Shown piece after piece: positions 1,785-28,682 of a DNA stretch of 30,031 nucleotides. This DNA comes from a virus (Duplodnaviria; Heunggongvirae; Uroviricota; Caudoviricetes), in IMG/VR virus record IMGVR_UViG_2648501437_000010, positions 1 to 30,031 of that record; one strand, written 5' to 3'. Numbering within the stretch: position 1 is the stretch's first letter; each line of letters begins with the position of its first letter. The notes under the pieces were generated by a model. The model did no database searches. It was not told the DNA's origin and worked only from the letters and a program-made list of their open reading frames with translations. The position numbers and the translations under genes were made by a program.

Positions 1785-1827
1785 GTGCTTTCCTTTGTTT
1801 TTTAAACAAATTGTTTTCTAGTATTAG

Positions 1828-2568: not shown

Positions 2569-2584
2569 GTGGCTCACCCGGCAG

Positions 2585-2600
2585 GTAGTTACTTACTTAT
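2585..2600 (-). promoter_or_regulatory. recurring 16-nt motif, site A (plus strand gtagtTACTTACTTAT)
   Basis: One of five near-identical intergenic 16-mers; here directly upstream of the RBS of the 1828-2568 gene. Confidence 0.4.
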
Positions 2601-2818
2601 CACAATGAGCGGATGATAGCGACTGGTGGCAGTTTTTGGAAGTGAAAACGGAAGGGAGTTGTTCTGGTGATGTCTTTTAAAAGACCTGCTTCCGTATATA
2701 TTTAATAAGTTACTTATTATTTATATACAGAAACAGGCTCCTAATGGATACCAAGAACAACATAATTTGACTCCAACCCCAGATGCTATGTCATTGACAG
2801 ATTTATCAAGGGAGATCA

Positions 2819-2827
2819 TGTTAGAAT
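2819..2827 (+). promoter_or_regulatory. candidate extended -10 promoter element (TGtTAGAAT) for the plus-strand gene
   Basis: TG-n-TAGAAT at 2819-2827 in the AT-rich divergent intergenic region; TTGACA at 2794-2799 is present but with a 22-nt spacer, so the -35 is doubtful. Confidence 0.3.
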
Positions 2828-2857
2828 CAGTGTTTTAGCCTCGTGGATATTGTCACC

Positions 2858-3916
2858 ATGCGCATGAATAGACTTCCAGGATATGGCCTTCCCGAACTGG
2901 CTTTTTGGCCTCAGCCTAAATATGAACGGAATAAATGGTCGATGTTCTGTCTGAAACTCCGTAATGATGGAACCCTTGCTTGGTATCGGCGATATGTTGA
3001 TCGTGGTATGCCAAACCACGCTTTTGATGACGACTACGATAACTATCCTGAAGCAAGAAAAGCGGCATTAGAGCTGAATAAAAACGTGAGCTTTGACATT
3101 GAAAAACTTCCTCTATCTATGTTTCAAAAGAAGTCATTGCGTTTGAAAGTTGACAAAGCACTCAAAGCCAAATCACGTCTCATGGATGAAGAGCATATAA
3201 TGCTCAACGAAGCAATTAAGGCACACGCCAACGATCCGCGAGTGACATTAAATGAGTTAATAATTAACCCAGATTACGAAACTTTGCGTCAACCCCTTTT
3301 TGACGTGCTAAGCGAGATGCCTTACTTACATTTTGTTTTTCTTCCCAAATTCCAAGTTTCACTTCAACTCGTTGCTCCTAACACTTGGGAATGTTCATAT
3401 AACAACAAAGCTAAGACAGCGAAGATCTGCTACCAAGAACGCATAGCCAGAGGTTTTGGTTTATCAGGTGCTGCACATTGGGGAAAAACAAAAGCGACTA
3501 TTCGCTCAATGCTTCTGCCGCGTGCTAACCGGTTACTGCAACTCGCCAGCGTAAAAAGAATGCTGGATGAAGCTCTCAGGAATGGGCAAAAGGTACTGGT
3601 TGTTGGCAACTTTGTTTTCTGGTTTGAGGACAAAAATCAGGTAGGTTGGAGTGTTAAAGTTGCTAGCGAAAGCGAAACCACCTCAAGAGGCAATACGCTC
3701 TGGAAAGAAGGAACTATCATTTCAAAAAATCACGGTCGAATTGTCGTGCTGCCGTATACAAAAGAAAACGGTAAACATGTAAAAGGTTATACCAAGAATG
3801 CCCCTAACGACGGCAACGCAATTCCGAGACATAAGGATGAGTATGTCGAGTTGCCCTTTGAAATTTTGGATGGTGACTTGATGTTCAGTCTGTTCGGTGA
3901 GCTTAACTACGAATAG
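2858..3916 (+). CDS. hypothetical protein, the only plus-strand gene in the window
   Basis: Long ORF (track 2843-3916 from GTG; first ATG at 2858, giving 352 aa); TAG stop at 3914-3916; convergent with the partition genes and followed by a hairpin. No motif I can assign. Confidence 0.55.
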   Translation: MRMNRLPGYGLPELAFWPQPKYERNKWSMFCLKLRNDGTLAWYRRYVDRGMPNHAFDDDYDNYPEARKAALELNKNVSFDIEKLPLSMFQKKSLRLKVDKALKAKSRLMDEEHIMLNEAIKAHANDPRVTLNELIINPDYETLRQPLFDVLSEMPYLHFVFLPKFQVSLQLVAPNTWECSYNNKAKTAKICYQERIARGFGLSGAAHWGKTKATIRSMLLPRANRLLQLASVKRMLDEALRNGQKVLVVGNFVFWFEDKNQVGWSVKVASESETTSRGNTLWKEGTIISKNHGRIVVLPYTKENGKHVKGYTKNAPNDGNAIPRHKDEYVELPFEILDGDLMFSLFGELNYE

Positions 3917-3936
3917 CTTTCATAGAACGAAATATT

Positions 3937-3968
3937 TCTAAGGCTGTCCAATGCAGACCAGCCTTAGA
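3937..3968. terminator. stem-loop between convergent genes (about 10-bp stem tctaaggctg / cagccttaga, 12-nt loop); candidate bidirectional terminator
   Basis: Inverted repeat lying between the plus-gene stop (3916) and the ParG-like gene stop (3977); flanks are A/T-rich but there is no clean U-tract. Confidence 0.4.
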
Positions 3969-3976
3969 GATTTATA

Positions 3977-4336
3977 TCAACCTTTCTTCATTAACTCGCG
4001 TTTAATTTCATCGGTTCGCATCGTGACATCGGCAGCGGTGATCGCCTCATTCAATTTCACGATGTCCTCGATTTCCTGCGGTGACTTCTCTGCCAGATGG
4101 AAAATGGCTGCTCGAATCACGTCAGAACGAGTGAACTTCTCGAAGCGAGGGATGAACTTCATCATCTCCAGCAGTTCGAAGTATTCGTCCTCCAGTGACA
4201 TTGTGCGGCTTTTAATTTTCTCTTTGCCACGAGTCGGGCGTCCCTGTGGTCTGACTGGTTGGCGCAAAGGAGTTGTGTTCTTAGCCGGTGCATCAGGCTC
4301 TTTGCGCTTTGCTAGGTCACCCATTTTCATGGACAT
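3977..4336 (-). CDS. small partition-protein candidate (ParG-like centromere-binding protein)
   Basis: 119 aa; basic, Pro/Arg/Lys-rich N-terminal tail followed by a short C-terminal folded region; ATG overlaps the parA stop (TAATG), implying translational coupling. Size and position fit a type Ib ParA partner. Confidence 0.5.
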   Translation of the reverse strand: MSMKMGDLAKRKEPDAPAKNTTPLRQPVRPQGRPTRGKEKIKSRTMSLEDEYFELLEMMKFIPRFEKFTRSDVIRAAIFHLAEKSPQEIEDIVKLNEAITAADVTMRTDEIKRELMKKG

Positions 4337-5004
4337 TATTCTTCTTCCTCCAGACTCAACAGATAATCTACAAATTCTTCAAACTCGGCTTCCGCCTTTT
4401 TGTCGCGCTCGCTACCGGTCATTTCAAAGATAGAACGACCAGACTCTTCCGCATCATCATAGACGTTGCGGTTATATAGATTGACTGGCGCAGACTCGAT
4501 GCCAAACGTCTCAACAATCTCTTTAGCCGCCAGAATGCGAGACACTTGTGATGGCAAAGCCGGGCACTGGTTCATGACCGCGCGGACCTTCACTTTATCG
4601 TTTACATTACGAACATTGTCGATAATAGGATCAATGTCACGCAGAGATTTCAAATCACGACGCTTAGGACGAAGCGGGATAATGATAACGTCGGCCATCA
4701 GCATCGCTTGTCGCTGAATTTCGGAGTCAAAGCCACCAGCATCTACCACTACAAACTCAGCTCTACCCTGAAGCGATTTTAGGTGCTTAATGATGTCATC
4801 CTGAACGTATGCAAAAGGAATCAGCTCAAGGTCTTCGTTCTGTCGACGGTCTTCACACCAGCTTGTTGTCGTGCGCTGAATATCTATATCAGTGATATAA
4901 ACCTTCTTCTTCTTTTTGACTTTCAGGCAAACGGCAATTTGCTGGGCAACGGTGGATTTGCCAGGCCCGCCCTTTGTGCCGCCAACCACAAAGATCTTGG
5001 TCAT
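4336..5004 (-). CDS. parA: ParA/Soj-family partition ATPase (small, type Ib-like)
   Basis: 222 aa; deviant Walker A KIFVVGGTKGGPGKST at the N-terminus, no N-terminal HTH extension; AAGGGA RBS. Confidence 0.85.
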   Translation of the reverse strand: MTKIFVVGGTKGGPGKSTVAQQIAVCLKVKKKKKVYITDIDIQRTTTSWCEDRRQNEDLELIPFAYVQDDIIKHLKSLQGRAEFVVVDAGGFDSEIQRQAMLMADVIIIPLRPKRRDLKSLRDIDPIIDNVRNVNDKVKVRAVMNQCPALPSQVSRILAAKEIVETFGIESAPVNLYNRNVYDDAEESGRSIFEMTGSERDKKAEAEFEEFVDYLLSLEEEE

Positions 5005-5130
5005 TGGAGAGTTCCCTTTGCGTATATAATTATCGTCTGAAACAACTTGTTTTCTTATATGTGATATAGCCTAAATGCCTACGGCTGCGGTGTAAAGGTT
5101 TAATGATAGGTACATAGGTGGGCTTAATAA

Positions 5131-5154
5131 CAAAAAACCCGCCGTAGCGGGTTT
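5131..5154 (-). terminator. rho-independent terminator ending the 5911-6330 / 5153-5926 operon
   Basis: On the minus strand: AAACCCGC-tacg-GCGGGTTT followed by TTTTTTG; GC-rich stem of 6-8 bp, 4-nt loop, U-tract. Overlaps the TAA stop at 5153-5155. Confidence 0.7.
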
Positions 5155-5926
5155 ATTGATTCATAGATCGTTTACTCAGAATGTTCACTATATGAGTACA
5201 AGCACCTGGGGTGAGATTGATTTTATTAGTCCCCCACTCTTCACGTCTTCGCATCTGGCCTCCGTCAGACTTACCGATATCCCACGGAATAAAACCACTT
5301 ACGCCACAGGCATCCTCACCCAATTCCTCTATAAAATTTTCGTTCTTCGTATCGTAAATTTCGACCAGTCCATGTTTGCGCATACTCACAGCCCAAAGAG
5401 TTGCGCCTTTTATCGTCTGTAACGTATCGCAAACCAAGTACTGATACTTATCTACGAGATAAAGGTAAGCAAAACTTGCGATGCCTAATCCCATATAATC
5501 AGCATGAGTAAAAACCCCTCTAATCTGCTTGGCGCTGACTTTTACTCCAGATTTATCCTTGATTGGAAACTCGCAGTAGGCCACGCGGAAGACTGTTTGG
5601 ACTGGCTGCCCCACATGCAACTTGTAGGATTCAATTTCTGCTCCTATCTCAAGAGGTGTGTAACCAGCACGTTTGAGTCGCTTAACTTCCTGCTCTTGGT
5701 AATCAGGATCACATGACTCAAGACACTCGCCAACAATACAGCGTTCATAGGCCGAATCAACAAGCTCGTATTCGGTAAATCGAATTAGATCGAAACCTCG
5801 GGAGATAAAATAGAACTCACCGAGAGCGATAATTCTCGTCGCTCTCGGCATTTCAGACAAGACCTTGCTGTAGTCTTCTATTTCAGGGATTAATCTGTTC
5901 GCCTGACCAATTAGAGATGGTGCCAT
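5153..5926 (-). CDS. hypothetical protein; weak GNAT-acetyltransferase-like motif
   Basis: 257 aa; segment HADYMGLGIASFAYLYL resembles GNAT motif A (h-P-x-Y-x-G-x-G-I-G/A). Start overlaps the upstream ORF by 16 nt. No other recognisable motif. Confidence 0.5.
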   Translation of the reverse strand: MAPSLIGQANRLIPEIEDYSKVLSEMPRATRIIALGEFYFISRGFDLIRFTEYELVDSAYERCIVGECLESCDPDYQEQEVKRLKRAGYTPLEIGAEIESYKLHVGQPVQTVFRVAYCEFPIKDKSGVKVSAKQIRGVFTHADYMGLGIASFAYLYLVDKYQYLVCDTLQTIKGATLWAVSMRKHGLVEIYDTKNENFIEELGEDACGVSGFIPWDIGKSDGGQMRRREEWGTNKINLTPGACTHIVNILSKRSMNQ

Positions 5927-6330
5927 GAAGTATTCTGTGCCGTTGATGGTTCCATATCATCGATTTTACAGAATTTCTTCATAAAAGACTCTACAACTTG
6001 TTTGATTCGTGAAGAAATATCACGATCTAAACACTTCAAGTCAGGATATTGTTCAGCAACATCTAAAACAAAAGAGGTTCGTTTACCGTTAGCGACAACC
6101 TCGGCCAACGGTTTAACCAGTGACGTAGAATTAGAGACCTTTTCGGCACGCGCCACATCGCTCTTAAAAGTGACGATGAAGTGCTGGCGGTTAGCTGATT
6201 CACGGCACAACATACGTCGCACTTCTACTGCGTCTTCACTGTTGTGAAAACGCATAGGAAAGCTGTCGATAACCGCAGTATTGGTGCGGATCGTCTGCAT
6301 AGAACGCGTATTGTCATGATAATTTAGCAT
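5911..6330 (-). CDS. hypothetical protein
   Basis: 139 aa; ATG at 6330 with AAGGTGGA RBS; preceded by a 209-bp structured non-coding spacer. Confidence 0.5.
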   Translation of the reverse strand: MLNYHDNTRSMQTIRTNTAVIDSFPMRFHNSEDAVEVRRMLCRESANRQHFIVTFKSDVARAEKVSNSTSLVKPLAEVVANGKRTSFVLDVAEQYPDLKCLDRDISSRIKQVVESFMKKFCKIDDMEPSTAQNTSWHHL

Positions 6331-6539
6331 ATATCCACCTTAGCCGTTAACACAAGTGTCATTGCGGCACCCCTCTCGGGGTTGAAGGCTACGAGAATGC
6401 GTAGCCTGTATGTGCCCACTTACGTGGATGCCTAATAAATCTACATCAAATTACTAAATGATTCAACATGAGCTTGAGTGAACAGGCGTGTATATGAGTG
6501 AAGATGCCATCTTTAGGATAAAAGGTAAACTGAGATCAA

Positions 6540-6776
6540 TCATCGACTCAGCTCAGGTGCCCCCCACTCACACAGCCTTTCACCTATCGTATTGTGGATA
6601 AGCAACTGTCGCTCCGTTTCCTCAGTCATAAAATCCTCTCTACTCACATAGATAGGATTTGCAGCATCGCAGAATAGCACGCCTGGAGCCTGCGTCTTAA
6701 TCACGCACCCATTTATCAAACAGCTCGCGATGAACACCAGAGGCATCTTTTTGCCGCACTTCATTAACCGTTTCAT
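6540..6776 (-). CDS. outer-membrane spanin candidate (Rz1-like lipoprotein); start ambiguous (6785, 6776, 6764 or 6746)
   Basis: Reading frame offset from, and overlapping the 3' end of, the i-spanin gene. N-terminus MKRLMKCGKKMPLVFIAS-C has a basic n-region, hydrophobic core and a lipobox-like IAS|C. Confidence 0.45.
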   Translation of the reverse strand: MKRLMKCGKKMPLVFIASCLINGCVIKTQAPGVLFCDAANPIYVSREDFMTEETERQLLIHNTIGERLCEWGAPELSR

Positions 6777-6948
6777 TTTTGACATCCACTGTGCTTTGAA
6801 GTCGTTTTCTGTCTTCCTGTTTTGCCTTCTCTTCCATTGCTCGTCGCGCCGCATTTCCGCCCATCGTGTAAGCGCCGACCAGAACGAAAAGAACGGCAGC
6901 CAGCGTAATCAAAGCAACTTTTAGCTTTGTCATCAGGCTGCCTAGCAT
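6697..6948 (-). CDS. inner-membrane spanin candidate (Rz-like)
   Basis: 83 aa; N-terminal TM segment VALITLAAVLFVLVGAY followed by a charged, coiled-coil-like region; AAAGGGATGG RBS; a lipoprotein ORF begins inside its 3' part in another frame. Confidence 0.55.
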   Translation of the reverse strand: MLGSLMTKLKVALITLAAVLFVLVGAYTMGGNAARRAMEEKAKQEDRKRLQSTVDVKNETVNEVRQKDASGVHRELFDKWVRD

Positions 6949-6949
6949 A

Positions 6950-7642
6950 TTAGACCATCCCTTTCTGGTGTCTTCTTACCTGCGACCAGGCGATAAATCC
7001 AGCCACAACAATAGTGGCAATACCGAAGATGATGCGTACTGTATCCCCGCTAGAGATATGACCTTGTGCTTTATCCATAGCAGCGGAAACCTGCGGCATA
7101 ACATCGGCCAGCTGCGCCAGACCAATACCTGCTGTAACAGTTGCGCCTGCTGTTTCTTTAGTTACAGGAACAGCCTTCACGGTTTTCACCGGCTTAACGA
7201 CGCCAGCTCGACGCAGACCTTCCTCAATAACTTCTGCCGCATACCAGGTGTTCAGCGTTTTTAGCGGACCTCGCCCATTCTCATGGCGAATGATTGCCTC
7301 AACCAAAGGTCGAAGAATGTCGTAATCATGCAGATCGATAATCATGTCTGCGGTTACACCAACGGCTTTAGACACCTCATTAATGTAGGCGTCAGTGTTG
7401 TTTTCATTCGGCGGTGCCCAACGTTCAATAACTTCACGAATGGTATCGATACTTGAGCCGTCTTTTGCGCGACGCTTGTCGTGGTAGGTAATTAGAGTCA
7501 CCGCCAGTGCACGAATCCCCCAAACAGGGTCTTTAAACGTGCAAAAGCGCGGTTCGTCTGGATTCGCAACCAGACCTTGCCACGGTGATCCTTTATCAAG
7601 ATTACCGGGGTTATTATTACGAATGCCTCTCGGAGTCTTCAT
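6950..7642 (-). CDS. tail-anchored membrane protein (soluble N-terminal domain + C-terminal TM helix); in the slot where an endolysin would be expected
   Basis: ATG at 7642 with strong AGGAGA RBS (ACAGGAGATCAAGGATG); N-terminus MKTPRGIRNNNPGNL; Ala/Thr/Val-rich linker; C-terminal IIFGIATIVVAGFIAWSQV followed by RRHQK. No catalytic motif I can assign. Confidence 0.6.
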   Translation of the reverse strand: MKTPRGIRNNNPGNLDKGSPWQGLVANPDEPRFCTFKDPVWGIRALAVTLITYHDKRRAKDGSSIDTIREVIERWAPPNENNTDAYINEVSKAVGVTADMIIDLHDYDILRPLVEAIIRHENGRGPLKTLNTWYAAEVIEEGLRRAGVVKPVKTVKAVPVTKETAGATVTAGIGLAQLADVMPQVSAAMDKAQGHISSGDTVRIIFGIATIVVAGFIAWSQVRRHQKGMV

Positions 7643-7655
7643 CCTTGATCTCCTG

Positions 7656-7979
7656 TTATTGCAGTCCATTTTTTACGCCATACGCGGCTAACCCCAAAAG
7701 CAGTGCGGTAATAATGAACGACGTTATTTTAGAAACAATGCCGCCAAAGAACCCACTTGAGATGGAATCTAACCGGTTAAGGAGTTTGTCCAGGTTGGAG
7801 TGTTGAATACTATGTTGCGCCGGGGTCATATCACCAAAGTAGGTTTTCAGCTGATCGTTGACCTCCTGGCCAATTTCTTCACGTAGCTCTTTACCTAATT
7901 TGCCAACAACCTCCCGAGCAACGATCGCGGCAATACGCTCAACTTGCTCTGTTGTAACGCCCGCCATCTCGTTCGACAT
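7656..7979 (-). CDS. small tail-anchored membrane protein (holin-like or superinfection-exclusion candidate)
   Basis: ATG at 7979 preceded by GGAGGA; about 107 aa with a charged soluble N-terminal part and a single C-terminal TM segment (IITALLLGLAAYGV). Confidence 0.5.
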   Translation of the reverse strand: MSNEMAGVTTEQVERIAAIVAREVVGKLGKELREEIGQEVNDQLKTYFGDMTPAQHSIQHSNLDKLLNRLDSISSGFFGGIVSKITSFIITALLLGLAAYGVKNGLQ

Positions 7980-8045
7980 GTTTTCCTCCATGAAAAGTCA
8001 AATCGGGATGGCGGATTTATATCACATTTCACCCTTTTGTTATAG

Positions 8046-8061
8046 GTGTGTACTTACCTAT
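8046..8061 (-). promoter_or_regulatory. recurring 16-nt motif, site B (plus strand gtgtgTACTTACCTAT)
   Basis: Intergenic, about 70 nt upstream of the 7656-7979 gene start, same orientation as the other sites. Confidence 0.4.
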
Positions 8062-8294
8062 CATTCAGCATTGCAACGGACTGATGAGAAAGCACCTACT
8101 CCTACCCATCGCCAGTTATAGATGCTACCCGCTTTGTATAAGGTATAGTCGTTCACTTTTTTAACAGCATATATGGGTATGACTGTCTCCTGTCCACCAA
8201 TGATAGCTTCACCATAACATATAGGTGTCGGCAATTTCTGGCAGCCAGTAAGAGAGAGAACAACAGCTATTGTTAGAAATAATCTTTTCATCAT
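8061..8294 (-). CDS. small lipoprotein (Cor-like superinfection-exclusion candidate)
   Basis: 77 aa; signal peptide MMKRLFLTIAVVLSLTG-C with lipobox LTGC; located downstream of the tail-fibre genes, as cor is in phi80/N15-type phages. Confidence 0.5.
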   Translation of the reverse strand: MMKRLFLTIAVVLSLTGCQKLPTPICYGEAIIGGQETVIPIYAVKKVNDYTLYKAGSIYNWRWVGVGAFSSVRCNAE

Positions 8295-8301
8295 TTACTC
8301 A

Positions 8302-8910
8302 TCAGTTATACAGATTTCTATTTATTACCGGTACTCTGCCATTTACGCTAAAACTATGGCCGCCATTAAGTTGGTTTACGAATATCGAGCTAACAGTATT
8401 TCCATATGCCGCATATCCATAAACCATTGTCATGGCTCCGCCCGGTACTGGAACAGCGGACACATTCGCATATGTTGGGATTATCGCTGGAGGGTAATCA
8501 AAAACATGCCCTCCAGAGCTGTTCCACTCCGTATTATTAAGAAAGGTAAATGAAAGTGGGATATTTGCCGTATTATAGATTTCCTCCCCTTGTGCATTGA
8601 AAAAACTCATGCCCCAAGTTTCTTTTTTGGCTATACCTTTCGAAAATACGTATATCGTGGCACTAGAGTCGCTACCCTGACCTCCGAAACTGTAAATCAC
8701 CTGGTTGTTACGCACTATTCTGTTGGCTATTAATGAAACAGCTTTCGAATAGGCAACAAAAATAATCGGTGAACGATCTGGAGATATTTTGGTGTTAAAC
8801 TCTGTTCCGCCGGACAAAGAAACAACCTGCTTTCTCTGAAAAACGATAGGAGACAAAGAAGGAGACATCCAGACCTTCCCGTCAGATCGATATATCTTGC
8901 TTCCGTACAT
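8302..8910 (-). CDS. hypothetical protein (Gly/Ser/Asn-rich, beta-rich composition)
   Basis: 202 aa; ATG overlaps the stop of the upstream 84-aa ORF (TAATG); no signal peptide. Confidence 0.5.
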   Translation of the reverse strand: MYGSKIYRSDGKVWMSPSLSPIVFQRKQVVSLSGGTEFNTKISPDRSPIIFVAYSKAVSLIANRIVRNNQVIYSFGGQGSDSSATIYVFSKGIAKKETWGMSFFNAQGEEIYNTANIPLSFTFLNNTEWNSSGGHVFDYPPAIIPTYANVSAVPVPGGAMTMVYGYAAYGNTVSSIFVNQLNGGHSFSVNGRVPVINRNLYN

Positions 8911-9164
8911 TATTTTTGAAAAACCAATATGTTTAAATTACCACTAGCTCCAGACCACGAAATGGTATTTCCAGAAACCGTAAGACTTGTGTACTTTCCA
9001 TTGGTTACGTCCATTATGTAATAGTCGATTCCCAATCCCGCCTCAACCTCATATGTTCTACTTCCTGAACCAGAGGGAGTAAAATAATCGAGGTAATAAA
9101 CAGGGGCCAACGCATTGACCATCTCCTGTCTTGATGGCGACCAAACCTGTGCACCATAGCTCAT
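8910..9164 (-). CDS. hypothetical small protein
   Basis: 84 aa; ATG at 9164 with AAGGA RBS 7 nt upstream; a hairpin (9190-9212) sits immediately 5' of the RBS. Confidence 0.45.
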   Translation of the reverse strand: MSYGAQVWSPSRQEMVNALAPVYYLDYFTPSGSGSRTYEVEAGLGIDYYIMDVTNGKYTSLTVSGNTISWSGASGNLNILVFQK

Positions 9165-9301
9165 AAATATATCCTTATACTTTTAAGCAGGGGCTGGTTT
9201 AGCTCCAGCCCCGATTGAAGTTGTTTATTATTTAGGTGAATTTAACTTCGTTTCAAGCTCCTCAACCCTTTTGGTCAATTGCTGAATATGATGAATGAGA
9301 C

Positions 9302-9331
9302 AAGGCCCGATAGCGGGCCTTAATTTTTATT
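9302..9331 (+). terminator. 8-bp GC-rich stem-loop (aaggcccg-atag-cgggcctt) followed by TAATTTTTATT; terminator-like only in the plus orientation
   Basis: Perfect inverted repeat 9302-9309 / 9314-9321 followed by a T-run; lies directly 3' of the tfa stop on the minus strand, where it is preceded by A-run and followed by only a weak U-poor tail. Confidence 0.35.
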
Positions 9332-14801: not shown

Positions 14802-14848
14802 GTTGAATATGCTCCTTGATTTGGTGGGCTATCCTTGCCCACCATTAA

Positions 14849-14864
14849 GTATGTACCTACTTAT
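14849..14864 (-). promoter_or_regulatory. recurring 16-nt motif, site C (plus strand gtatgTACCTACTTAT)
   Basis: Intergenic between the J stop (14894) and the stf start (14801); followed on the coding strand by hairpin 14822-14844 and the AAGGAG RBS. Confidence 0.4.
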
Positions 14865-14893
14865 TTTTACCGATATAAATATTTTTTTCTACA

Positions 14894-19621: not shown

Positions 19622-19638
19622 GTTCAAAAAATCCTTGT

Positions 19639-21017: not shown

Positions 21018-21708
21018 ATCGCGTAGCTCCAATAAACCCGCCAAAATGGATCACTCCGTTGGCAAAATAATTCCGACGCGCATTACAGGCGTCATAACGT
21101 TTTGTGCAGTAATCAGCACCAGACATAGACGTCTGCTGGTTATTTTTGTCGAAATATGGACCGGTATAGCCGCATTCTGGCCCTCGGTATTTCCACGGGC
21201 AGGTGTTTTTAATGATCTGACGATACGGCAGTTGCACCCCCATCAAATCGAACACACTGGACAATTCAAACTCGACAACCTGATGAGTTTCGAGAGTTTT
21301 CTGTTCGATAAACCACATTTCATCCGGGAAATGTTGGTTTGGATCTGCTGTTGGGTTGCCGTCTTTAAAATTAACGGCATCGAGGAAGCGAGCCAGCGTC
21401 ATCTTGCGAATAATGCGGCAGCCAACAAGATCGTCGTTCGCCTGAACTTCCGCAGAGACGGTTCCGGCAAAGTTCGATACCTGAATTTTTGGACGTGGCA
21501 ACGTTCCCTGGCCAGTTTTGTCAAAGCCTGATGCTTTGATTGGCCACGGCTCGTATGTCACTCCTTGCCAGACGACCGGTTGCATCAGTTCGTTTGTTCC
21601 GGCGTGGAAGAATAACTTCCCCCCTGAAGTTGTGTTCGACATATCCAGTACGAACAACTCAATGAGTGCAGAGGGAGATAAGCTCTGAATATCAGCTTTA
21701 ATTCCCAT
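21010..21708 (-). CDS. L: minor tail protein (lambda L family)
   Basis: Conserved W-QG-x-Y-x-P-x-PI-x-SGF, RFLDAVNF and C-terminal cysteine cluster C-x-W-x-YRG-x-ECGY-x-G as in gpL; ATG at 21708 with AAGGATGA RBS. Confidence 0.85.
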   Translation of the reverse strand: MGIKADIQSLSPSALIELFVLDMSNTTSGGKLFFHAGTNELMQPVVWQGVTYEPWPIKASGFDKTGQGTLPRPKIQVSNFAGTVSAEVQANDDLVGCRIIRKMTLARFLDAVNFKDGNPTADPNQHFPDEMWFIEQKTLETHQVVEFELSSVFDLMGVQLPYRQIIKNTCPWKYRGPECGYTGPYFDKNNQQTSMSGADYCTKRYDACNARRNYFANGVIHFGGFIGATRYG

Positions 21709-21766
21709 TGTTTCATCCTTGAAATAAGTAGGCGCTAACATCCTGTCAGCGCCACAATGATAGTAA

Positions 21767-21782
21767 ATTAGTACTTACTTAT
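21767..21782 (-). promoter_or_regulatory. recurring 16-nt motif, site D (plus strand attagTACTTACTTAT)
   Basis: Intergenic between the M stop (21791) and the L start (21708); followed on the coding strand by hairpin 21731-21753 and the RBS. Confidence 0.4.
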
Positions 21783-21790
21783 CCAGATAC

Positions 21791-22126
21791 TTAAGCCTCA
21801 AATACTTGTCTGAATGTAGCAGTTAAGACACAGTACCCCTGATATCGCTTGACCGTATGACTGTCACATACAACTACAATCCGTTTTCCTCTTGGATTAA
21901 CCCAATAGAACGACTCAACGCCTGCTCGCTCAGTCAGGAAGTCATCGATTGCATTAATTTCGTTGTATGATCTGGTAAAGGTTAACGACCATTCTTCTTT
22001 AATACGATTAAGACCTTGAGCCTGTCGCTGCTCGTAGTCATCACCAAAATTAAGTACCGTTACATTCGGTTTTACGCTTTTTTCAGATTCGTAATCTGGA
22101 TACCAATTAAACGTTTGTCTTTCCAT
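21791..22126 (-). CDS. M: minor tail protein (lambda M family)
   Basis: 111 aa; ...NFGDDYEQRQAQGLN...SFYW...P... matches the gpM pattern (RFGDGYSQR...GLN...SFLW); AAGGA RBS lies in the loop of a small hairpin. Confidence 0.8.
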   Translation of the reverse strand: MERQTFNWYPDYESEKSVKPNVTVLNFGDDYEQRQAQGLNRIKEEWSLTFTRSYNEINAIDDFLTERAGVESFYWVNPRGKRIVVVCDSHTVKRYQGYCVLTATFRQVFEA

Positions 22127-22168
22127 CTCACATCCTTGTGAGACTGCCCCGGTCGGGGCAGTCGATAG

Positions 22169-25100
22169 TTAGTTACGTTGAGTGTTTGGGTTGAGTGATC
22201 CGCCAGGGCGTTTCTCTTGAGCGATAGTCTCAAGCGCGATTGCTTTCATCCGTTGAGCGGCATTGTTCCATATGCTTTCTGTATCGCCGGATTCAGTTGT
22301 GCTACCGTCACTATGGACGTTGATCTCAATTGATACAGGAGAAAGAACATTTCCTCCTCCACTCATACCATCGGTACTGAGCGTTACAGGGATTGTTCGA
22401 CCATCAGGCAATGGAACATACGCCTCATTCATATCGCCTTCCCCAAACAACGCCAATTGAGGTGAGTTGGCGATACCGCCTTTCTGGTATGCCCGGAGCG
22501 GGATCACGCCGTCTTTTCCGAATATGCCACCATTTGCAAACTTCGGAATTGCAGGAATACCATTCGTGCCATCGGCAGCAGAACTGGTCAGATTGTTGAA
22601 CCCGGAAGTTGAGCCAGAAGAACCGGACATCAATCCATCGAATCCACCACCAGCCCATACTGAAACCAAACCAGATGCAACTGTCGCGCCGAAATTCAAC
22701 CACTTATTACCAGAGCCGGAAGCATTAGCTCCAAGCATTGCAAACGCGGCAGACAGAGCGCCGGTAACAGAGCTGAGGTTCTGCATCGAGAAGATGGAGT
22801 CCTTCACTGCTTTTGTCTCAGCATCTTTGGCTTCGGTGCTATTAAATAGCCCTGATACCCAGCTACCAATCGCATTTGTTGCTGTGCCAATTGCGCTGGT
22901 GGTCTGCTGTGTCGTTTGCCCCAATCCAGTTACCGAACTGGACGTCTCCTTCGTGGCTTCTCCTACCGACTTGTCGCCATTAACAGTGTTGCTTATGCGC
23001 ACACCTTGATTGGCAACTGCGGAAGCAACCCCGGTGAGCAAATTACCACTCTGTGAACTACCAGCTGCGGTGGTTCCCATTCCCAACATGTTCATTAGAG
23101 GCAGCGTGATCTGCGACTTCACGACCATATTGGTGATATCTTTCAAAATGGACTGAGATAGGCTGGAGAAGCTCATCTTCCCGTTAATAACGAAATCAGT
23201 CAGGACATCAGTTAAGCCACTAAACAAATCAGTCCAGGTGCTTTCGATCTGCTCTGCCAGGTTTTCGTATTCCAGTGCCAACTTCTGCGTCGCAGTCCCC
23301 GTCTCTTTAATAAGCGCGGTATTGCCAGCAGCAATCAGTTGATTGATTTTCTTTGTATAAAGCGCCACAACTTTAGGATCAGACGCCTTATCACGAAGTT
23401 CTATCAACGCTTTGAGATTGCGGTTGTAGGTGTCTTCGAAATCAGCAACTTTATCTTCGCGAGACGGCGTATAGCCAGCACTAATAATGGAATCCGACTC
23501 CGGTGCCCAGGTGGAGATCATCTGCTCAACATTGCGGCGATTAAACATCTCGCGATATTCAGGTGTCGCATTTTTGAGGTCTTCAAGACGTTTTTTCGCC
23601 TTGTCGATCATCTCTTGAGTGATGAACTCGTTAGGAACCGCATTAGCCAAATCTGTCAGCGATTTCGTTGTATCGCGAAGAGACTGATCAAACGATACCG
23701 TAGCCTTAGAGCTTTCACCCATTTGCCCCATAAGCTGATCGGCTTTGTCCAGAGCCTTCTGGTATCCGGCTGCCAGTTTCTGTTGCGCTGCCTGTTCCTT
23801 CTTGGCCGCACGCTGCGAGGCGTTAGCTGATCGTTGGGCTGCTTTCTCGGCAGCTGCTGCATCCTGTTCACGAGCTTTAGTCAGTGCAGCAATAGCTGCG
23901 GCACGCTCTTCATCGCTCATTTTCTCCAGAGAGCTGGCGCTGGATGCTTTCTGCAAATTAAGCTGCGTCTTGAGTTGTTTAGGCCCAATAATCGGCTTAC
24001 CTTCGAAGTCCATCATCGGAGTGCCGTCAGGCAAAGTACGTTGATAAGTCGCAGAATCCATCTGGTTTCGCATATATTGCGCCAGCGCCTTCTGAGCAGC
24101 TTTATCAGTTGTACCTAACCCAAGAACAGTCCCCTGGTTTGACATTACGCCCTTACCAGTTTTGGCCGCGTTATCTCTCTCGAACTCTGCCTGAGTCAGC
24201 TCCTGAGCAACGGCTTCCAAATGCTCCTGATAACCACGAATACTGCCTTGCAGTTTCTGGATCTGCTCGGTATTTCCATCCTTTTTGGCTTTTTCAAGCT
24301 GATCATTAAGAGTCGCAATTTGCTTCTCGGTCGCATTCTTACGAGAAGAAAGTGAATCAACCAGTTTTTGCGCAGGCTCCAGATAGCTTTTGTTTACCGT
24401 TTCACGTAACGGTGCCAATAGCTTGTTCTTTTCGTCATCTGAAAGTGAACCGTCATCATTGATTTTCTGGATCTTATCCAGAGCCTCCTGCCGGGCTTTC
24501 ACGAATGTTGCCGCAAAGTCTCTATTCTCTTCCCGTATTTTCTCTATCTGTGATTCTGCCGCATCTTTTGCAAGACGTTTGGCTACAGCAATGTCTCCGC
24601 GTTCAATTGCCCCAGTAGTTTTATCGCGTTTCTTACGAAGGTCATTTAGCTCATTTTCTATACGCTTACGTTCATCCTGATTAATCTTTACTGTAGTTCC
24701 GGCCATACCCGGCCCATAAACCACCTTTTCGCCAGATTTTAACTCTTGTTCCTTTTGCGTGATTTGTTGCTCAAGACGCGCTTTATACTCCGCCATCTGT
24801 GCACGTTTGGCCGCTGTCATCGCTTCTGGTATTTTCCTAATCTCGTCAACGACCTTTGAAGTTTCGCTGCGGAGCATGGTCATGTACGTGATTAGGCCAG
24901 CAACAGCTACAGTGGCAACTGTAAATGCTGCCCCTATAGGGTTTGCTGCAATGAACGCCGTTAATCCAGCAAAAGCGCCTTTAAGCCCCGTAATCGCCCC
25001 ACGGATGGCGAAAATAAGAGAGGGGATCGGAGCCAGCCCCATACGTGCCGCACGATTGAATCGGGTTACTGCTGTAGCGCCGAGGTTAAATGGAGTCTGT

Positions 25101-26746
25101 ATGGCTGTCGCCATCGTGGCAAAGGTGCTAACCATCTGGCTGCCTGCGCCAACTACCCCCATGATCCCTGCTCGCATCAGTTTGAACGCAACCATCGCGG
25201 CCACGACCTTACCGAGATTAATTACCAGCTCTTGGTTCTTTGCTAACCATTGAGCAAGCTGACGCAACCCATCGATTGCCGTTGTTAACCCCGAACCTAA
25301 AGAATTGGCAAACGAAATCCCTTCGGCGCTATTCATGATTGAAGCCAGTTCTTTCATCCCCTTCGATAGAGAATCCAGATATCCGGCCTGACCAACCCGA
25401 TCAGCAAATAACGTGAATGACGTCTGAAGTTGCGCCAGCGCACCTGTGTAGGTTTGCATCATGTCTTTCGCTGCGTTCTCATTCTCCGCACGCAGACCAA
25501 CAAACATCAGAGACAACGCCTGTTTTGCCTCAACCGTACCGCTGGCAACGGCTTTAGTCAGTTCCCCCATAGTGATGCCTGCGGCGTCTGCCATTGCCTG
25601 CATCGCGTTAGGAACGGCTTCACCTAATTGCTGACGTAGCTCTTCCATTGACACAACGCCCTTACCGGACATCTGCTGAACGGCCACAGCCGCACGTTTC
25701 AACAGCTCACTATCACCACCAAAACGAGCAACGGAGTCCACCAGCGCCTTCAGAGAACCATCGGTTGGATCTAAGCCAGCAGAACGAAACTTCACGAAGG
25801 AGTCTGTTAACGCCTGCATCGCGAACGGCGCATTTTGAGCCATGTCTACGATGTACTTCATATCATCAGCGGCAGCCTGGCCCGGGTTGGACTTCTCCTT
25901 ATTCAACCCTCGAAGCATCACCCGCATACGTTCCATTTCGGCCGCAGCTTCAACAATAGGCTTCTGCCACCCAAACATGATGTCAGTAACCGTTCTGGCT
26001 GCATCTCCGATCTCGCCAAGCAGGAAAATGTTGCCACGAAGGCCAGAGAACATACCTCCTTCGTTACTTTTACCGCTATGGCCAGAAGCGCCGCTACGCC
26101 GCCCGCTACCACCATCGCCACTTCCAGATGTACGAACGCGTACCGGCTTGCTAATCAGTTGCTGACGTCCGATAACTTCGTCCATCTGCTCACGAACCTT
26201 TTTCAGTCCCTCGGCAGCCTGACTCGTTGTGACACCCCAATTACTGAGTCGCTTCGTCGTGGTATTAAGGCGCGTATTCATGCCACTCACGGACGCAGAG
26301 GCTTCTTTGACCTCCGTACCAAAGCGGCTTGCGCTTTTGCTTGCATAGGTCGCCCAATCAGAGAAATCATTTAGCTCTGATTGCACTTTACGTAATGACG
26401 CGGTGAGTTTATCTACTGAAGAAGTTGTCGTATCGACGCGCTCAATCAGGGCTTTAAGACCAGAATTGAGGCTGGTGATGTTGCCACGCATTTTACGCGT
26501 AGCATCTGAAGCAAGCTCAAAACCGGCAGCTACATCCTGTAGTTTATCTGCCGTAGAATCGAGCTTGCTTTCCAGAACGCCAATGATACGGGCGACCGAA
26601 CCCAAAGAGCGTTCAAAGGTTTGGATTTTTTGAGCAGGCTTTGTTACCTGCTCACCAAATCGAGTAAGCAGTTTCCCCGCACGATCGATTGACGCTGTAA
26701 ACTGTTTGTCTTCCAGCGACAGGATAAACTCTACGTTTTGTGACAT
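22169..26746 (-). CDS. tail tape measure protein
   Basis: About 1525 aa, alpha-helical/coiled-coil-rich with internal hydrophobic Gly/Ala-rich segments; sits between the G/GT chaperone genes and the M homologue; first ATG at 26746 (the track ORF starts at a TTG at 26767). Confidence 0.85.
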   Translation of the reverse strand: MSQNVEFILSLEDKQFTASIDRAGKLLTRFGEQVTKPAQKIQTFERSLGSVARIIGVLESKLDSTADKLQDVAAGFELASDATRKMRGNITSLNSGLKALIERVDTTTSSVDKLTASLRKVQSELNDFSDWATYASKSASRFGTEVKEASASVSGMNTRLNTTTKRLSNWGVTTSQAAEGLKKVREQMDEVIGRQQLISKPVRVRTSGSGDGGSGRRSGASGHSGKSNEGGMFSGLRGNIFLLGEIGDAARTVTDIMFGWQKPIVEAAAEMERMRVMLRGLNKEKSNPGQAAADDMKYIVDMAQNAPFAMQALTDSFVKFRSAGLDPTDGSLKALVDSVARFGGDSELLKRAAVAVQQMSGKGVVSMEELRQQLGEAVPNAMQAMADAAGITMGELTKAVASGTVEAKQALSLMFVGLRAENENAAKDMMQTYTGALAQLQTSFTLFADRVGQAGYLDSLSKGMKELASIMNSAEGISFANSLGSGLTTAIDGLRQLAQWLAKNQELVINLGKVVAAMVAFKLMRAGIMGVVGAGSQMVSTFATMATAIQTPFNLGATAVTRFNRAARMGLAPIPSLIFAIRGAITGLKGAFAGLTAFIAANPIGAAFTVATVAVAGLITYMTMLRSETSKVVDEIRKIPEAMTAAKRAQMAEYKARLEQQITQKEQELKSGEKVVYGPGMAGTTVKINQDERKRIENELNDLRKKRDKTTGAIERGDIAVAKRLAKDAAESQIEKIREENRDFAATFVKARQEALDKIQKINDDGSLSDDEKNKLLAPLRETVNKSYLEPAQKLVDSLSSRKNATEKQIATLNDQLEKAKKDGNTEQIQKLQGSIRGYQEHLEAVAQELTQAEFERDNAAKTGKGVMSNQGTVLGLGTTDKAAQKALAQYMRNQMDSATYQRTLPDGTPMMDFEGKPIIGPKQLKTQLNLQKASSASSLEKMSDEERAAAIAALTKAREQDAAAAEKAAQRSANASQRAAKKEQAAQQKLAAGYQKALDKADQLMGQMGESSKATVSFDQSLRDTTKSLTDLANAVPNEFITQEMIDKAKKRLEDLKNATPEYREMFNRRNVEQMISTWAPESDSIISAGYTPSREDKVADFEDTYNRNLKALIELRDKASDPKVVALYTKKINQLIAAGNTALIKETGTATQKLALEYENLAEQIESTWTDLFSGLTDVLTDFVINGKMSFSSLSQSILKDITNMVVKSQITLPLMNMLGMGTTAAGSSQSGNLLTGVASAVANQGVRISNTVNGDKSVGEATKETSSSVTGLGQTTQQTTSAIGTATNAIGSWVSGLFNSTEAKDAETKAVKDSIFSMQNLSSVTGALSAAFAMLGANASGSGNKWLNFGATVASGLVSVWAGGGFDGLMSGSSGSTSGFNNLTSSAADGTNGIPAIPKFANGGIFGKDGVIPLRAYQKGGIANSPQLALFGEGDMNEAYVPLPDGRTIPVTLSTDGMSGGGNVLSPVSIEINVHSDGSTTESGDTESIWNNAAQRMKAIALETIAQEKRPGGSLNPNTQRN

Positions 26747-26753
26747 TCCCTTG

Positions 26754-27421
26754 TCATCCTCTGCCAAATATTTGCATCAGTTGCTCTTTGGCGTCAGGGT
26801 CTGCCTTATCCTGGCTTGGATCGTAGACTTTATCTGTTACGACTGGTCTTCCAATCCTGAGTTGCAAACCCTCCATGAACGCCTTCACAGCCTCGCCATC
26901 CGCCTGGGACGCACGAGCGACTTGTAAGTTGCGGACATCCTCTTCCGCACGCAGACGGTCTATATTGCGACTGAGCATCCAGAACATCGTGAGAGGAACG
27001 TTCAGTAGCTCTAATGGCGACACGGCGTAGTGAGCAACTACACGACTGAAATAGAATCCGAGATCTATTGAGACGGTCCTTGTCCCGGATTCATCGCGGG
27101 AAATTACTTTGCCCCTTCGCCAGCCGCTTTTTCGTTTTCTTCATCAATCACTTCCATAGCGAAGGTGAAGATCTGCTGGAGTTGCGGAACAGTCAGTTTT
27201 TCAAGAACTTCATCAGGCACTGAAGGGATAACCTTACGAACCAGATCTGCATAAGCTGTCACTTGCTCAACAGGAGACATGTTCATGAGATCTTTGCCTT
27301 CCATCTGCTTGATGGAAACGAACAAACCTACCGTCATTTCAACGATGGGATATTCCTGACCGCCAAATTTGATGCTTTTCTTCGGAGGCAGAATGGAATC
27401 GAGATCGAGTAATTTGGTCAT
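26754..27421 (-). CDS. putative GT-type tail assembly chaperone produced by a -1 programmed frameshift
   Basis: The downstream ORF (26754-27023 in the track) is open in the -1 frame from 27140 to 26754 and overlaps the 3' end of the G-like ORF by 34 nt (27107-27140); classic G/GT arrangement directly upstream of the tape measure gene. Confidence 0.45.
27104..27421 (-). CDS. tail assembly chaperone (lambda G-like)
   Basis: 105 aa, acidic; located between the major tail and tape measure genes; AAGGA RBS; -1 frame extension available downstream. Confidence 0.7.
   Translation of the reverse strand: MTKLLDLDSILPPKKSIKFGGQEYPIVEMTVGLFVSIKQMEGKDLMNMSPVEQVTAYADLVRKVIPSVPDEVLEKLTVPQLQQIFTFAMEVIDEENEKAAGEGAK
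27107..27140 (-). other. candidate -1 ribosomal frameshift window (no canonical X_XXY_YYZ heptamer; best candidate is the A5 run in cGAAAAAGcg)
   Basis: mRNA agaaaacgaaaaagcggctggcgaaggggcaaag; both the 0 and -1 frames are open only across this 34-nt overlap. Confidence 0.35.
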
Positions 27422-27442
27422 TGGTTTAAATCCTTTTAAAAG

Positions 27443-27463
27443 AGAGGCTCATCCTGAGCCTCT
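27443..27463 (-). terminator. stem-loop (8-bp stem, 5-nt loop) followed by CUUUUAAAAGGA on the minus strand; candidate partial terminator or attenuator after the major tail gene
   Basis: agaggctc-atcct-gagcctct perfect inverted repeat 14 nt after the major tail stop; short interrupted U-tract, then the RBS of the G-like gene. Confidence 0.4.
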
Positions 27464-27476
27464 GCTTAATTACTGA

Positions 27477-28223
27477 TTAATCTGCGGAGTTAATCGTTAC
27501 TGACTTAGTTGTCTTCTTAGCGCCGCTATTGCTGGTGAAGGAGATGTTTGCAGTACCCTGCGCCACACCACGTACCAGACCCGTTTGATCTACCGTGGCC
27601 TTTTCCTGGTCTTCGGATTCCCAAACACCGGTTTTATCTGCGGCATCATCTGGAGTGATTTCTGCTGTCAGTTGCACAGTCTCCCCTGCTTTTACAGTTG
27701 GAGATTCCGGTTTGATCGACACGGTTTTTACCGGTTTAGGGCCGCTCATTCTTCCCAGAACGCCTTCGTCATCAGGGTACGCACTGAACTGAACAGAGAA
27801 CACACGAACATCATCAGACTGGTAAGTCATGGTGAAGTTACCTGCGGTCGCAGCTTTCGGGATGGTCAGAACGTAGTCGGTAGTGTCCTGCGGAGTCAGA
27901 ACCAGCTCTTTGGCTACGTCGATCAGGTTGACACCCTGTGCGGAAGTGATGGTCACAGCGTTGTCGTCTTCGTTCAGAGTAGACCCCGGCATCAGATCAA
28001 CCATATTTTTCAACACAGACTCGGCCAGCGGCGCAGTAATGGTAATGTTACGACCCTGCACCAGCTCGGACATAATTGTCTGGCCGTGCTGGTCGACAGT
28101 GACTTTCAGCGTTTCAGTGGCTACTTCAACCTGAACACCACCTTTGGTGTAACCCAAATCCACACCACCAAACGACACCTTACAGGCACCAAGTTTGATG
28201 TTTTTTACATGGGTATTAGACAT
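27477..28223 (-). CDS. major tail protein with C-terminal Ig-like (Big_2-type) domain
   Basis: 248 aa from ATG at 28223 (AAAGGAG RBS); C-terminal about 80 aa (VKTVSIKPESPTVKAGETVQLTAEITPDDAADKTGVWESEDQEKATVDQTGLVRGVAQGTANISFTS) has the Big_2 pattern; positioned directly upstream of G/GT and the tape measure gene. Confidence 0.8.
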   Translation of the reverse strand: MSNTHVKNIKLGACKVSFGGVDLGYTKGGVQVEVATETLKVTVDQHGQTIMSELVQGRNITITAPLAESVLKNMVDLMPGSTLNEDDNAVTITSAQGVNLIDVAKELVLTPQDTTDYVLTIPKAATAGNFTMTYQSDDVRVFSVQFSAYPDDEGVLGRMSGPKPVKTVSIKPESPTVKAGETVQLTAEITPDDAADKTGVWESEDQEKATVDQTGLVRGVAQGTANISFTSNSGAKKTTKSVTINSAD

Positions 28224-28277
28224 TGATGGAAAACTCCTTTTTCCGTTAATTCTACGCATTCATTGCGCTAATAGTAA

Positions 28278-28293
28278 GTATATACTTACCCAT
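28278..28293 (-). promoter_or_regulatory. recurring 16-nt motif, site E (plus strand gtataTACTTACCCAT), embedded in the perfect palindrome GTAAGTATATACTTAC
   Basis: Intergenic between 28298 and the major tail start (28223); palindrome at 28275-28290. Confidence 0.4.
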
Positions 28294-28297
28294 TAAC

Positions 28298-28681: not shown

Positions 28682-28682
28682 A

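Follow-up and report, generated by a model that had tools for sequence, protein, structure and literature searches.

Arrays of one short DNA site, repeated over a phage or plasmid genome and read by one protein, are known from several systems. The C1 operators of phage P1 are asymmetric 17-mers, dispersed over the genome and read by the lysogeny repressor. The stoperators of cluster A mycobacteriophages are asymmetric 13-mers that point in the direction of transcription; the protein that binds them is the immunity repressor (gp71 in L5). The sites called CIRs in Streptomyces phage phiC31 are palindromic and bound by the product of a known repressor gene. Plasmid RK2 has 12 dispersed OB sites for KorB, whose distances to promoters vary, and the centromere sites of N15 are likewise dispersed. 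Here we discuss a palindromic element found in a stretch of 30,031 nucleotides (nt) of viral DNA (Caudoviricetes; IMG/VR record IMGVR_UViG_2648501437_000010), the whole of which we call the window. Five copies of this 20-base-pair (bp) palindrome lie in the window, and they belong to an array of about 28 copies. Reading the sequences, we give a probability of about one half to the interpretation that the palindrome is a shared operator-like element at the boundaries of lytic transcription units, most likely read by a phage-encoded dimer.

Judged by analogy, the array would work most like the operator arrays of P1, L5 and phiC31, or like the KorB sites of RK2. It resembles P1 in that a plasmid prophage has one short site repeated near the starts of many operons and read by one phage protein (here a presumed reader); on the other hand, the site here is a 20-bp palindrome, no lysogen-expressed repressor is linked to it, and the same sequence occurs in very distant relatives. 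The likeness to the stoperators lies in the 25-30 or so copies, in short intergenic gaps at early and late genes alike, often touching stop or start codons and with no promoter needed at each site. Unlike the stoperators, the present site is symmetric with little orientation bias and its orthologues flip strand, and a roadblock role would be assigned to it by analogy. The phiC31 CIRs are also palindromes of about 17 bp or more in well over a dozen intergenic copies, some beside promoters or terminators, whereas here the candidate binder genes are silent in the lysogen. Finally, the KorB and N15 sites are palindromes scattered on a plasmid at variable promoter distances, with a ParB-family reader and one site at that reader's own operon (in our case a candidate reader and its operon); the differences are 28 copies here versus 4-12, and ParB-like proteins that have no detectable helix-turn-helix (HTH) and are silent in the plasmid state. 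Against the P1, L5, phiC31 and RK2 arrays as a group, what is distinctive here is the symmetry, a sequence unchanged in very distant relatives, the association with terminator hairpins, and best candidate readers that are lysogen-silent.

Over most of its length the window matches the Escherichia phage-plasmid Cyrano (OV696614, 108 kb, from E. coli LF82; SSU5 family) at 96-98% identity; its identity to Salmonella phage SSU5 is about 80%. It holds the tail, lysis, partition and helicase regions, reversed relative to Cyrano. SSU5-type phage-plasmids are widespread: a terminase search returns more than 1,000 plasmid records, from Klebsiella, Escherichia, Acinetobacter, Enterobacter, Yersinia pestis and Salmonella. 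Resistance genes have been described on phage-plasmids (PMC9600943). Gene regulation in the SSU5 type is essentially unstudied, and full-text literature searches found no description of the palindromic element. A single conserved site at nearly every lytic unit would offer a handle for finding a lytic master regulator and for predicting transcription units.

Copy number and placement of the palindrome

An earlier note on the window, made from its sequence alone, had reported a 16-nt motif recurring five times, always intergenic and in the orientation of the downstream operon, and had proposed a phage-specific promoter class or a common operator as its function. The five instances are confirmed. 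The pattern TACYTACYYAT has exactly five matches in the window, all on the plus strand (2590, 8051, 14854, 21772 and 28283), and chance would give 0.05 matches, as estimated from dinucleotide-preserving shuffles. The asymmetric 16-mer did not survive as the conserved unit, which is instead an imperfect palindrome of 20-22 bp with the halves ATArGTAAGT and ACTTAyyTAT (also written ATAAGTAAGT and ACTTACTTAT). All five sites lie in gaps between minus-strand open reading frames (ORFs), upstream of minus-strand starts as had been described; from the 20-mer to the downstream start codon there are 12, 50, 43, 21 and 50 nt for sites A to E.

For the genome-wide count, a weight matrix was built iteratively on the whole Cyrano genome, and only the SSU5 count is independent of this training. 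The matrix consensus, ATArGTAAGTnnTTAyyTAT, is again an imperfect palindrome, with half-site ATArGTAA. Cyrano has 28 loci scoring at least 12 bits and 27 scoring at least 16 bits, where shuffles give 0.3 at the higher cutoff. The corresponding numbers for SSU5 are 29 and 24, and 0.17 in shuffles. Many dispersed, mainly intergenic copies, far above chance, are what one expects of a dispersed operator, and that is what we observe in Cyrano, in SSU5 and in the Rhizobium phage RHEph10 discussed below.

How intergenic is the array? In Cyrano 26 of the 28 loci are intergenic, in a genome that is 13% non-coding. The consensus itself holds TAAGTAAGTA, which puts stop codons in two of the three frames on either strand. 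Once this stop-codon effect is allowed for, about 31% of sites are expected to be intergenic, and 26 of 28 still has a P of about 1e-11. Thus the intergenic enrichment holds for all five window sites and for the genome-wide scan that the note had proposed, although the word "always" overstated it and the effect is partly forced by the stop codons in the consensus. The co-orientation did less well: it is seen at all five window sites, but it is largely a small-sample effect, with only a weak enrichment in Cyrano (20 of 28), 118 of 195 sites family-wide and 19 of 38 in distant relatives. As a side observation, the stop codon of the upstream gene sometimes falls inside or overlaps the motif, as at 8061-8063 of the window and, in Cyrano, in the genes for TerL, RNase H, DUF4942 and CYRAN_80.

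In Cyrano the sites stand before or between genes for structural proteins, lysis, replication, recombination and nucleotide metabolism, and the boundaries that the array appears to mark are those of the structural, lysis, replication and nucleotide-metabolism units of SSU5-type phage-plasmids. The matrix scan finds no sites in the lysogeny and accessory block of Cyrano (about 39-50 kb) or in its small-gene block (85-105 kb). There is no preferred spacing to the genes. A Cyrano motif can be 1 to 160 nt away from the next start codon and -4 to 161 nt away from the previous stop codon; several Cyrano gaps place the motif 1-12 nt from a start, two Rhizobium-phage lineages place it 0-12 nt before terS, and overall the distance to the start is 0 to 160 nt.

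A partial copy stands apart from these loci. The divergent promoter region of the putative repressor CYRAN_45 carries, at Cyrano 42603-42622, the sequence GGTAAGTGCTTACC, which is the inner 14 bp of the element without its outer ATA/TAT arms and scores 10 bits.

Symmetry and lineage variants

To look at symmetry across the family, we use 195 non-redundant sites oriented by gene direction. Their consensus, aaAATAAGTAAGT joined to ACTTACTTATtat, is a perfect palindrome with flanks that are essentially without information, and the variant in RHEph10, in a background of 60% GC, is likewise palindromic with flat flanks. The gene strand is the best-scoring strand for 18 of the 29 SSU5 loci, and counting all sites the bias is about 60:40. 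Moreover, orthologous sites switch best strand between Cyrano and SSU5.

The two halves of the palindrome can also be asked whether they change together. At the ten mirrored position pairs, changes on both sides occur about as often as expected for independent halves: for example, pair 5/16 has 3 observed against 3.0 expected, and pair 8/13 has 2 against 3.8. Of the 8 outer pairs, 5-7 are intact in most sites, which leaves 1-3 mismatched. Since both-side changes match independence, and since it is the sequence rather than the pairing that is conserved, the pattern fits a dimeric DNA-binding protein. Here the earlier suggestion of a common operator for a dimeric protein agrees with what we find: a dyad-symmetric site of 20-22 bp, in dozens of copies, with half-sites that vary independently.

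These same numbers bear on a role in RNA, in which the transcript would form a hairpin that marks processing, stability or termination, or is the target of an RNA-binding protein. A palindrome makes the same hairpin in either orientation, and many copies adjoin GC-rich, terminator-like hairpins; the order capsid gene stop, motif, terminator recurs in Cyrano, SSU5, contigs L063 and L087, and RHEph10. Stop codons in two or three frames would clear ribosomes before the element. A minority of copies, in the window, in Cyrano (three) and in RHEph10 (several), form the tip of longer hairpins with arms of differing sequence, in some cases followed by T-runs. Against such a role, compensatory changes are not in excess, the 8-bp stem, rich in A and U, contains 1-3 mismatches in most copies, stand-alone copies have no T-run, and the sequence is kept across genomes from 43% to 63% GC where pairing alone is not. 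We regard an RNA-level function for the element as unlikely.

The dimeric reader of the preferred interpretation gains from the comparison of lineages. In Cyrano and SSU5 the site occupies orthologous gaps even though the flanks differ. A scan of viral contigs returns many SSU5-like fragments, and in addition relatives with only about 50-58% identity in terminase and portal proteins and 58-63% GC, close by protein similarity to the Rhizobium phages V1VFA-S, B1VFA and RHph_X66. These distant relatives carry rTAAGTAAGTnnTTACTTAy at the same gene boundaries. The gaps that are kept are those between TerL and portal, between the stop codon of the major capsid protein (MCP) gene and a terminator (in the order stop, motif, terminator), between Tc1 and the tail tube, and between UvsW and ParB.

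Other lineages have variants of the site. RHEph10 (60% GC) carries TCAGTmAAT / ATTkACTGA in 23 copies versus 0.1 in shuffles; Acinetobacter pORAB01-1 carries ATTAGTAAGC / GCTTACTAAT, a Cupriavidus plasmid GTCAGTCAGC / GCTGACTGAC, and Aeromonas pVA7-1 ATCAGTAAGT / ..TTACTGAT. Each genome has one variant, common to all its copies. The variants are independent of host taxonomy, with two of them among Rhizobium phages and one common to E. coli and Rhizobium elements. Because the variants do not track the host, a host protein is unlikely to be the reader. Probably, the sites are read in trans by a protein that the element encodes and that co-evolves with them. Sites for host transcription factors (Fur, LexA, CRP and others) were compared with the palindrome and set aside: their spacing does not fit, and the variants do not follow the host. 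The lineage variants amount to a natural data set in which a DNA-binding protein and some 25 target sites would change specificity together. They could also serve to classify lineages, and possibly to switch phage-plasmids on or off.

Does the element need a reader at all? It could be a short conserved linker, a homology patch for module exchange, or a selfish repeat with no regulatory role. The alignment of the window with Cyrano breaks off right at the border of site B (window 8062), and the homology of the window to both Cyrano and SSU5 breaks at 2745-2748, just past a long hairpin at 2683-2738. In addition, the most variable genes, for tail fibre and accessory functions, lie between sites B and C. 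However, the other mosaic junctions fall away from the motif sites, orthologous gaps are kept in very distant lineages, and the concerted variants of each lineage point to a trans-acting reader. A selfish or mobile repeat should shift position, while copies are found at the same gene boundaries in elements from E. coli to Rhizobium and Acinetobacter. We consider a function as linker or repeat alone very improbable. The conserved sites may nevertheless also act as junctions for module exchange.

Transcription and candidate readers

Could the motif be a promoter, one of the two options in the earlier note? In that case, a phage RNA polymerase, sigma factor or activator would read it, and transcription would start at the motif or just after it. 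Many lytic genes have the motif upstream, and the 85-105 kb small-gene block, which has sigma-70-like promoters, lacks it; all five window sites score best on the gene strand; TATnnT-like hexamers follow many sites; and RNA levels step up across three motif gaps after 6 h in macrophages. On the other hand, a palindromic consensus with flat flanks is unlike an asymmetric promoter for a polymerase or sigma factor, and unlike the site of an activator acting at a fixed distance. The orientation, 60:40 overall, is 50:50 in distant relatives. We find no -35 or -10 hexamers at a fixed position with respect to the motif, and the information content is flat outside the palindrome, which upholds the remark in the note that no -35 lies at a fixed distance. 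The site may touch or overlap the next start codon, and in several lineages it lies between the stop of the capsid gene and a terminator. The expression data have no overall step-up over motif gaps.

Moreover, the polymerase or sigma factor that such a class would call for did not turn up. None is annotated in Cyrano or SSU5, and none of the 28 Cyrano proteins scanned, a set with only part of the hypotheticals, has a corresponding Pfam domain. RHEph10 (L127) does encode a protein with sigma-70 region 2 (gp045, 39826-40461), between cobS and the DNA polymerase gene, but it has no tblastn match in Cyrano or SSU5. We conclude that the 20-bp palindrome is not a promoter class; that promoter activity could still be the common function of the sites is, in our estimate, quite improbable.

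Two specific arrangements were also tried and dropped. A sigma-70 -10 in or beside the motif (a hexamer made of the final 3 nt of the motif and 3 more, or of 4 nt upstream and AT) is present at a minority of sites and not above background. A late promoter of the P1 Lpa type, a palindrome with a strict -10, finds neither the strict -10 nor an annotated Lpa homologue. As for sigma-70 promoters in general, matches in the window are about three-fold rarer than in dinucleotide-preserving shuffles (7 vs. 24.5 in 1-15000, and 7 vs. 17.8 in 14000-30031). Of the 14 window matches, three overlap a motif site (B, D or E), and no two of these share a geometry. Separately, TGTAAGAAT, which resembles an extended -10, is found 4-5 nt downstream of the motif at two unrelated Cyrano gaps (34758-34766 and 84644-84652); it is conserved in SSU5, and CYRAN_34, downstream of the first of these copies, is expressed in the lysogen.

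A second dispersed palindrome, AAGAAAACAAnTTGTTT, is a better candidate than the 20-bp element for recurrent sigma-70 promoters. It has about 18 copies in Cyrano (L001-L003) and two in the window (1804-1816 and 5040-5052), with good -10 hexamers (GATAAT, TATTAT, TATATC and the like) about 9 nt upstream of it. A conserved shape, cTTTnncGCCTT...GATAAT, characterizes the promoter that precedes it. The copies concentrate in the small-gene block at 93-98 kb, and others precede terS (two copies), parA, the helicase gene, nrdB and tciA. This family looks like early sigma-70 promoters with an operator or 5′ hairpin of their own.

The expression data at hand are RNA-seq of LF82 (S1 table of PMC9928086), whose phage-plasmid Cyrano can be induced through the SOS response (PMC9928086). 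In the plasmid-prophage state, almost all genes flanked by the motif are at background (PMC9928086). RNA levels in the lysogen tend to drop over motif gaps, and in condition B6 the mean change there is -1.05 log2, vs. +0.53 elsewhere. As a test of promoter or roadblock these data fail on both counts, with no general step-up and a step-down like that of other large gaps. They show that the motif gaps are transcription-unit boundaries, and they are compatible with activation as well as repression.

Which protein could be the dimer of the operator interpretation? One block of genes is kept in every lineage examined: UvsW on the minus strand, then two ParB-like genes, an ABC ATPase, a second ABC-associated protein, a small protein, terS and terL. 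The gap between UvsW and the first ParB-like gene has one motif copy in every lineage examined, 17 nt upstream of CYRAN_119 in Cyrano. This copy abuts or overlaps a -10-like hexamer (TATAAT, TATAGT or TATGAT) in Cyrano, SSU5, lineage L078, Cupriavidus and RHEph10, and L078 and RHEph10 have TTGCCT 18 nt upstream of that hexamer. A second constant copy separates the small-protein gene from terS, whose start is 0 to about 125 nt away.

The candidate readers come from this operon, just upstream of terS: the winged-helix protein of the CYRAN_123 family or the ParB-N-domain protein of the CYRAN_119 family. The CYRAN_123 family comprises small proteins of about 80-107 amino acids with a winged-helix sequence pattern, and its profile has weak but consistent matches to the winged helices of MarR, Lrs14, RctB and LexA. 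For the ParB-like proteins, PF02195 (ParB_N) matches CYRAN_119 with E = 3e-13 and CYRAN_120 with E = 1e-8, and residues 7-154 of CYRAN_119 match Spo0J (1vz0) at 2.7e-9, with a GGEHRWRAA box that resembles the GERRxRA box. After ParB_N, no HTH family is detected in either CYRAN_119 or CYRAN_120, and what comes after residue 105 is an acidic linker and then a conserved C-terminal segment with no match among solved structures. When putative contact residues are compared with the motif variants for RHEph10 alone, the result favors the winged-helix protein.

The mechanism that we have in mind is as follows. A protein dimer would bind the palindromic site, and its binding would modulate transcription, either repressing or activating it. 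At sites directly adjoining a -10 hexamer, for instance in the promoter of the operon for the ParB-like and winged-helix proteins, the bound dimer could occlude RNA polymerase. Where the site stands at a gene boundary beside a terminator hairpin, it might serve as a roadblock or an insulator. If one of CYRAN_119 to CYRAN_123 is the binder, the array is not an operator for lysogeny maintenance, since these genes are near-silent in the lysogen.

Several observations weigh against an operator read by such a dimer. In the lysogen, CYRAN_119-122 are at background and CYRAN_123 is slightly above it (PMC9928086). The drop in RNA at motif gaps, for gaps of at least 20 nt with an expressed upstream gene, is no greater than at other gaps. 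After 6 h in macrophages there are step-ups over motif gaps at the tail tube gene (+2.5 log2), CYRAN_56 (+3.6) and CYRAN_60 (+3.65), and the CYRAN_34 motif gap has a step-up of +2 to +3.4 log2 in all conditions. The co-variation of residues and motif becomes inconsistent for both candidates once Acinetobacter, Cupriavidus and Aeromonas are added. The annotated prophage repressor CYRAN_45 is expressed in the lysogen but is an unlikely reader, as SSU5 has the motif and lacks this gene. Immunity operators do not usually keep one identical site across elements with only about 50% protein identity. Finally, the copies that form the tip of longer hairpins, in which the arms are not conserved and a T-run follows, may act as hairpins.

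Two other proteins were considered as readers and set aside. CYRAN_117, small, lysogen-expressed and possibly ribbon-helix-helix, has no homologue at the corresponding position of L078. The FljA-like CYRAN_114, as a reader at the RNA level, has a strong Flag1_repress match and nothing that ties it to the motif. CYRAN_114 (Cyrano 100780-101301, annotated as "transcriptional regulator") is a full-length match to the family of FljA, the phase-1 flagellin repressor (PF03614, E = 1e-80).

The same operon suggests a different function for the palindromes. ParB-family proteins read palindromes of 13-16 bp, and the sites could be loading sites, like parS or the OB sites of RK2, for CYRAN_119 and CYRAN_120, maybe together with the adjacent ABC-type ATPases. 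They would then act in organizing DNA, silencing, partition or preparation for packaging, and effects on transcription would be secondary. Both proteins carry ParB_N and CYRAN_119 aligns to Spo0J; the ParB-ParB-ABC-ABC block adjoins terS and is kept in all lineages examined; and a motif copy always lies directly upstream of the first ParB gene. We hold such loading sites to be doubtful, given the lack of a detected HTH after ParB_N, the C-terminal segment with no solved-structure match, and C-terminal strands that are nearly identical in Acinetobacter and L078 where the motif variants differ. Partition in particular is unlikely, with CYRAN_119 and CYRAN_120 at background in the plasmid-prophage state, and the element has separate ParA-type partition genes elsewhere.

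A more specific proposal, which we consider improbable, is that the palindromes load an undescribed DNA-organizing machine of the lytic phase. Its components would be the pair of ParB-N-domain proteins, the split ABC-type ATPase and the small winged-helix protein, whose genes all lie directly upstream of the terminase genes. If it were true, every boundary between transcription units would carry this machine while the phage-plasmid replicates, the long lytic operons could have their insulation or read-through tied to compaction or packaging of the genome, and the site, co-evolving with its reader, would be a family-specific "address".

The window sites and neighboring structures

All five window sites have their best score on the gene strand, here the minus strand. 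Site A (2581-2600, minus strand, ATAAGTAAGTAACTACCTGC) scores 20.3 bits on that strand and lies 12 nt before the ATG of the first gene of the helicase/primase block, the homologue of CYRAN_31. Its orthologues are at 31296 in Cyrano and 33600 in SSU5. Site B (8042-8061, minus strand, ATAGGTAAGTACACACCTAT, 24.7 bits) is 50 nt upstream of the holin gene. It shares one base with the TGA stop codon (8061-8063) of the ORF at 8061-8294: the site begins with the base on which that codon ends.

Site C (14845-14864, minus strand, ATAAGTAGGTACATACTTAA) scores 20.9 bits on the minus strand and 18.6 bits on the plus strand, and its SSU5 orthologue scores best on the opposite strand. It lies between the gene for a J-like tail tip and that for a side tail fibre, 43 nt before the start codon. 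Site D (21763-21782, minus strand, ATAAGTAAGTACTAATTTAC, 24.8 bits) is in the gap between M and L, two tail genes, and the start codon of L is 21 nt away. The GC-rich hairpins that had been noticed after sites C and D are real. The one at site C (14823-14843, minus strand) is GGTGGGC-aaggata-GCCCACC, begins 1 nt past the site and has no T-run. The one at site D (21731-21753, minus strand) is terminator-like, GGCGCTGAC-agga-TGTTAGCGCC and then TACTTATTTC, with 10 pairs of which 6 are G-C. The motif plus 60 nt folds with an energy of -21.7 kcal/mol at site C and -25.0 kcal/mol at site D. In RHEph10, the gap between M and L (position 13521) has the motif and a hairpin, as at site D.

Site E (28274-28293, minus strand, ATGGGTAAGTATATACTTAC, 20.0 bits) occupies the gap that separates the tail completion gene from the major tail (tube) gene, where a start codon with a Shine-Dalgarno sequence follows after 50 nt; an in-frame ATG without a Shine-Dalgarno is also found 14 nt away. 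A sigma-70-like match, TTGAAT-18-TATACT (28306-28277), overlaps the site. As a side observation on the annotation of the major tail gene, the listed ORF starts at an ATG 36 nt upstream of the start that has the Shine-Dalgarno AAAGGAG (window 28223-28259). The real start is most likely 28223, as the Cyrano annotation has it.

The inner 16 nt of site E are a perfect palindrome, and one of the two palindromic variants that the earlier note listed apart from its five instances, at 28275-28290, is this inner part of the site. The other, at 2704-2718, is the apex of the 56-nt hairpin at 2683-2738. This long hairpin has 15-bp arms (2685-2699 and 2723-2737), an AT-rich apex (2698-2724) that is a degenerate copy of the motif with 15.8-19.5 bits, and a T-run after it on the gene strand. 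The 160-nt stretch that holds it (2631-2790) folds at -52 kcal/mol.

Two mosaic replacements in the window begin at site B and at this hairpin. At site B, the replaced segment comprises accessory genes and the end of the tail fibre gene (8063-11619); an insert with an ORF of 357 amino acids (2746-3974) starts at the homology break of the hairpin.

Hairpins of this kind, the window copy included, have the arms CCTGCTTCTGTATAT / ATATACrGAAGCAGG around a degenerate motif and a T-run after it, and there are three per genome: in Cyrano at 31150-31215, 78080-78140 and from 108340 to the end of the record, and in SSU5 at about 33450, 78300 and 103260. terS has one of the copies directly upstream and the helicase block has another, and an analogous hairpin is found upstream of terS in the Rhizobium-phage-like contig L063, at about 5200-5250.

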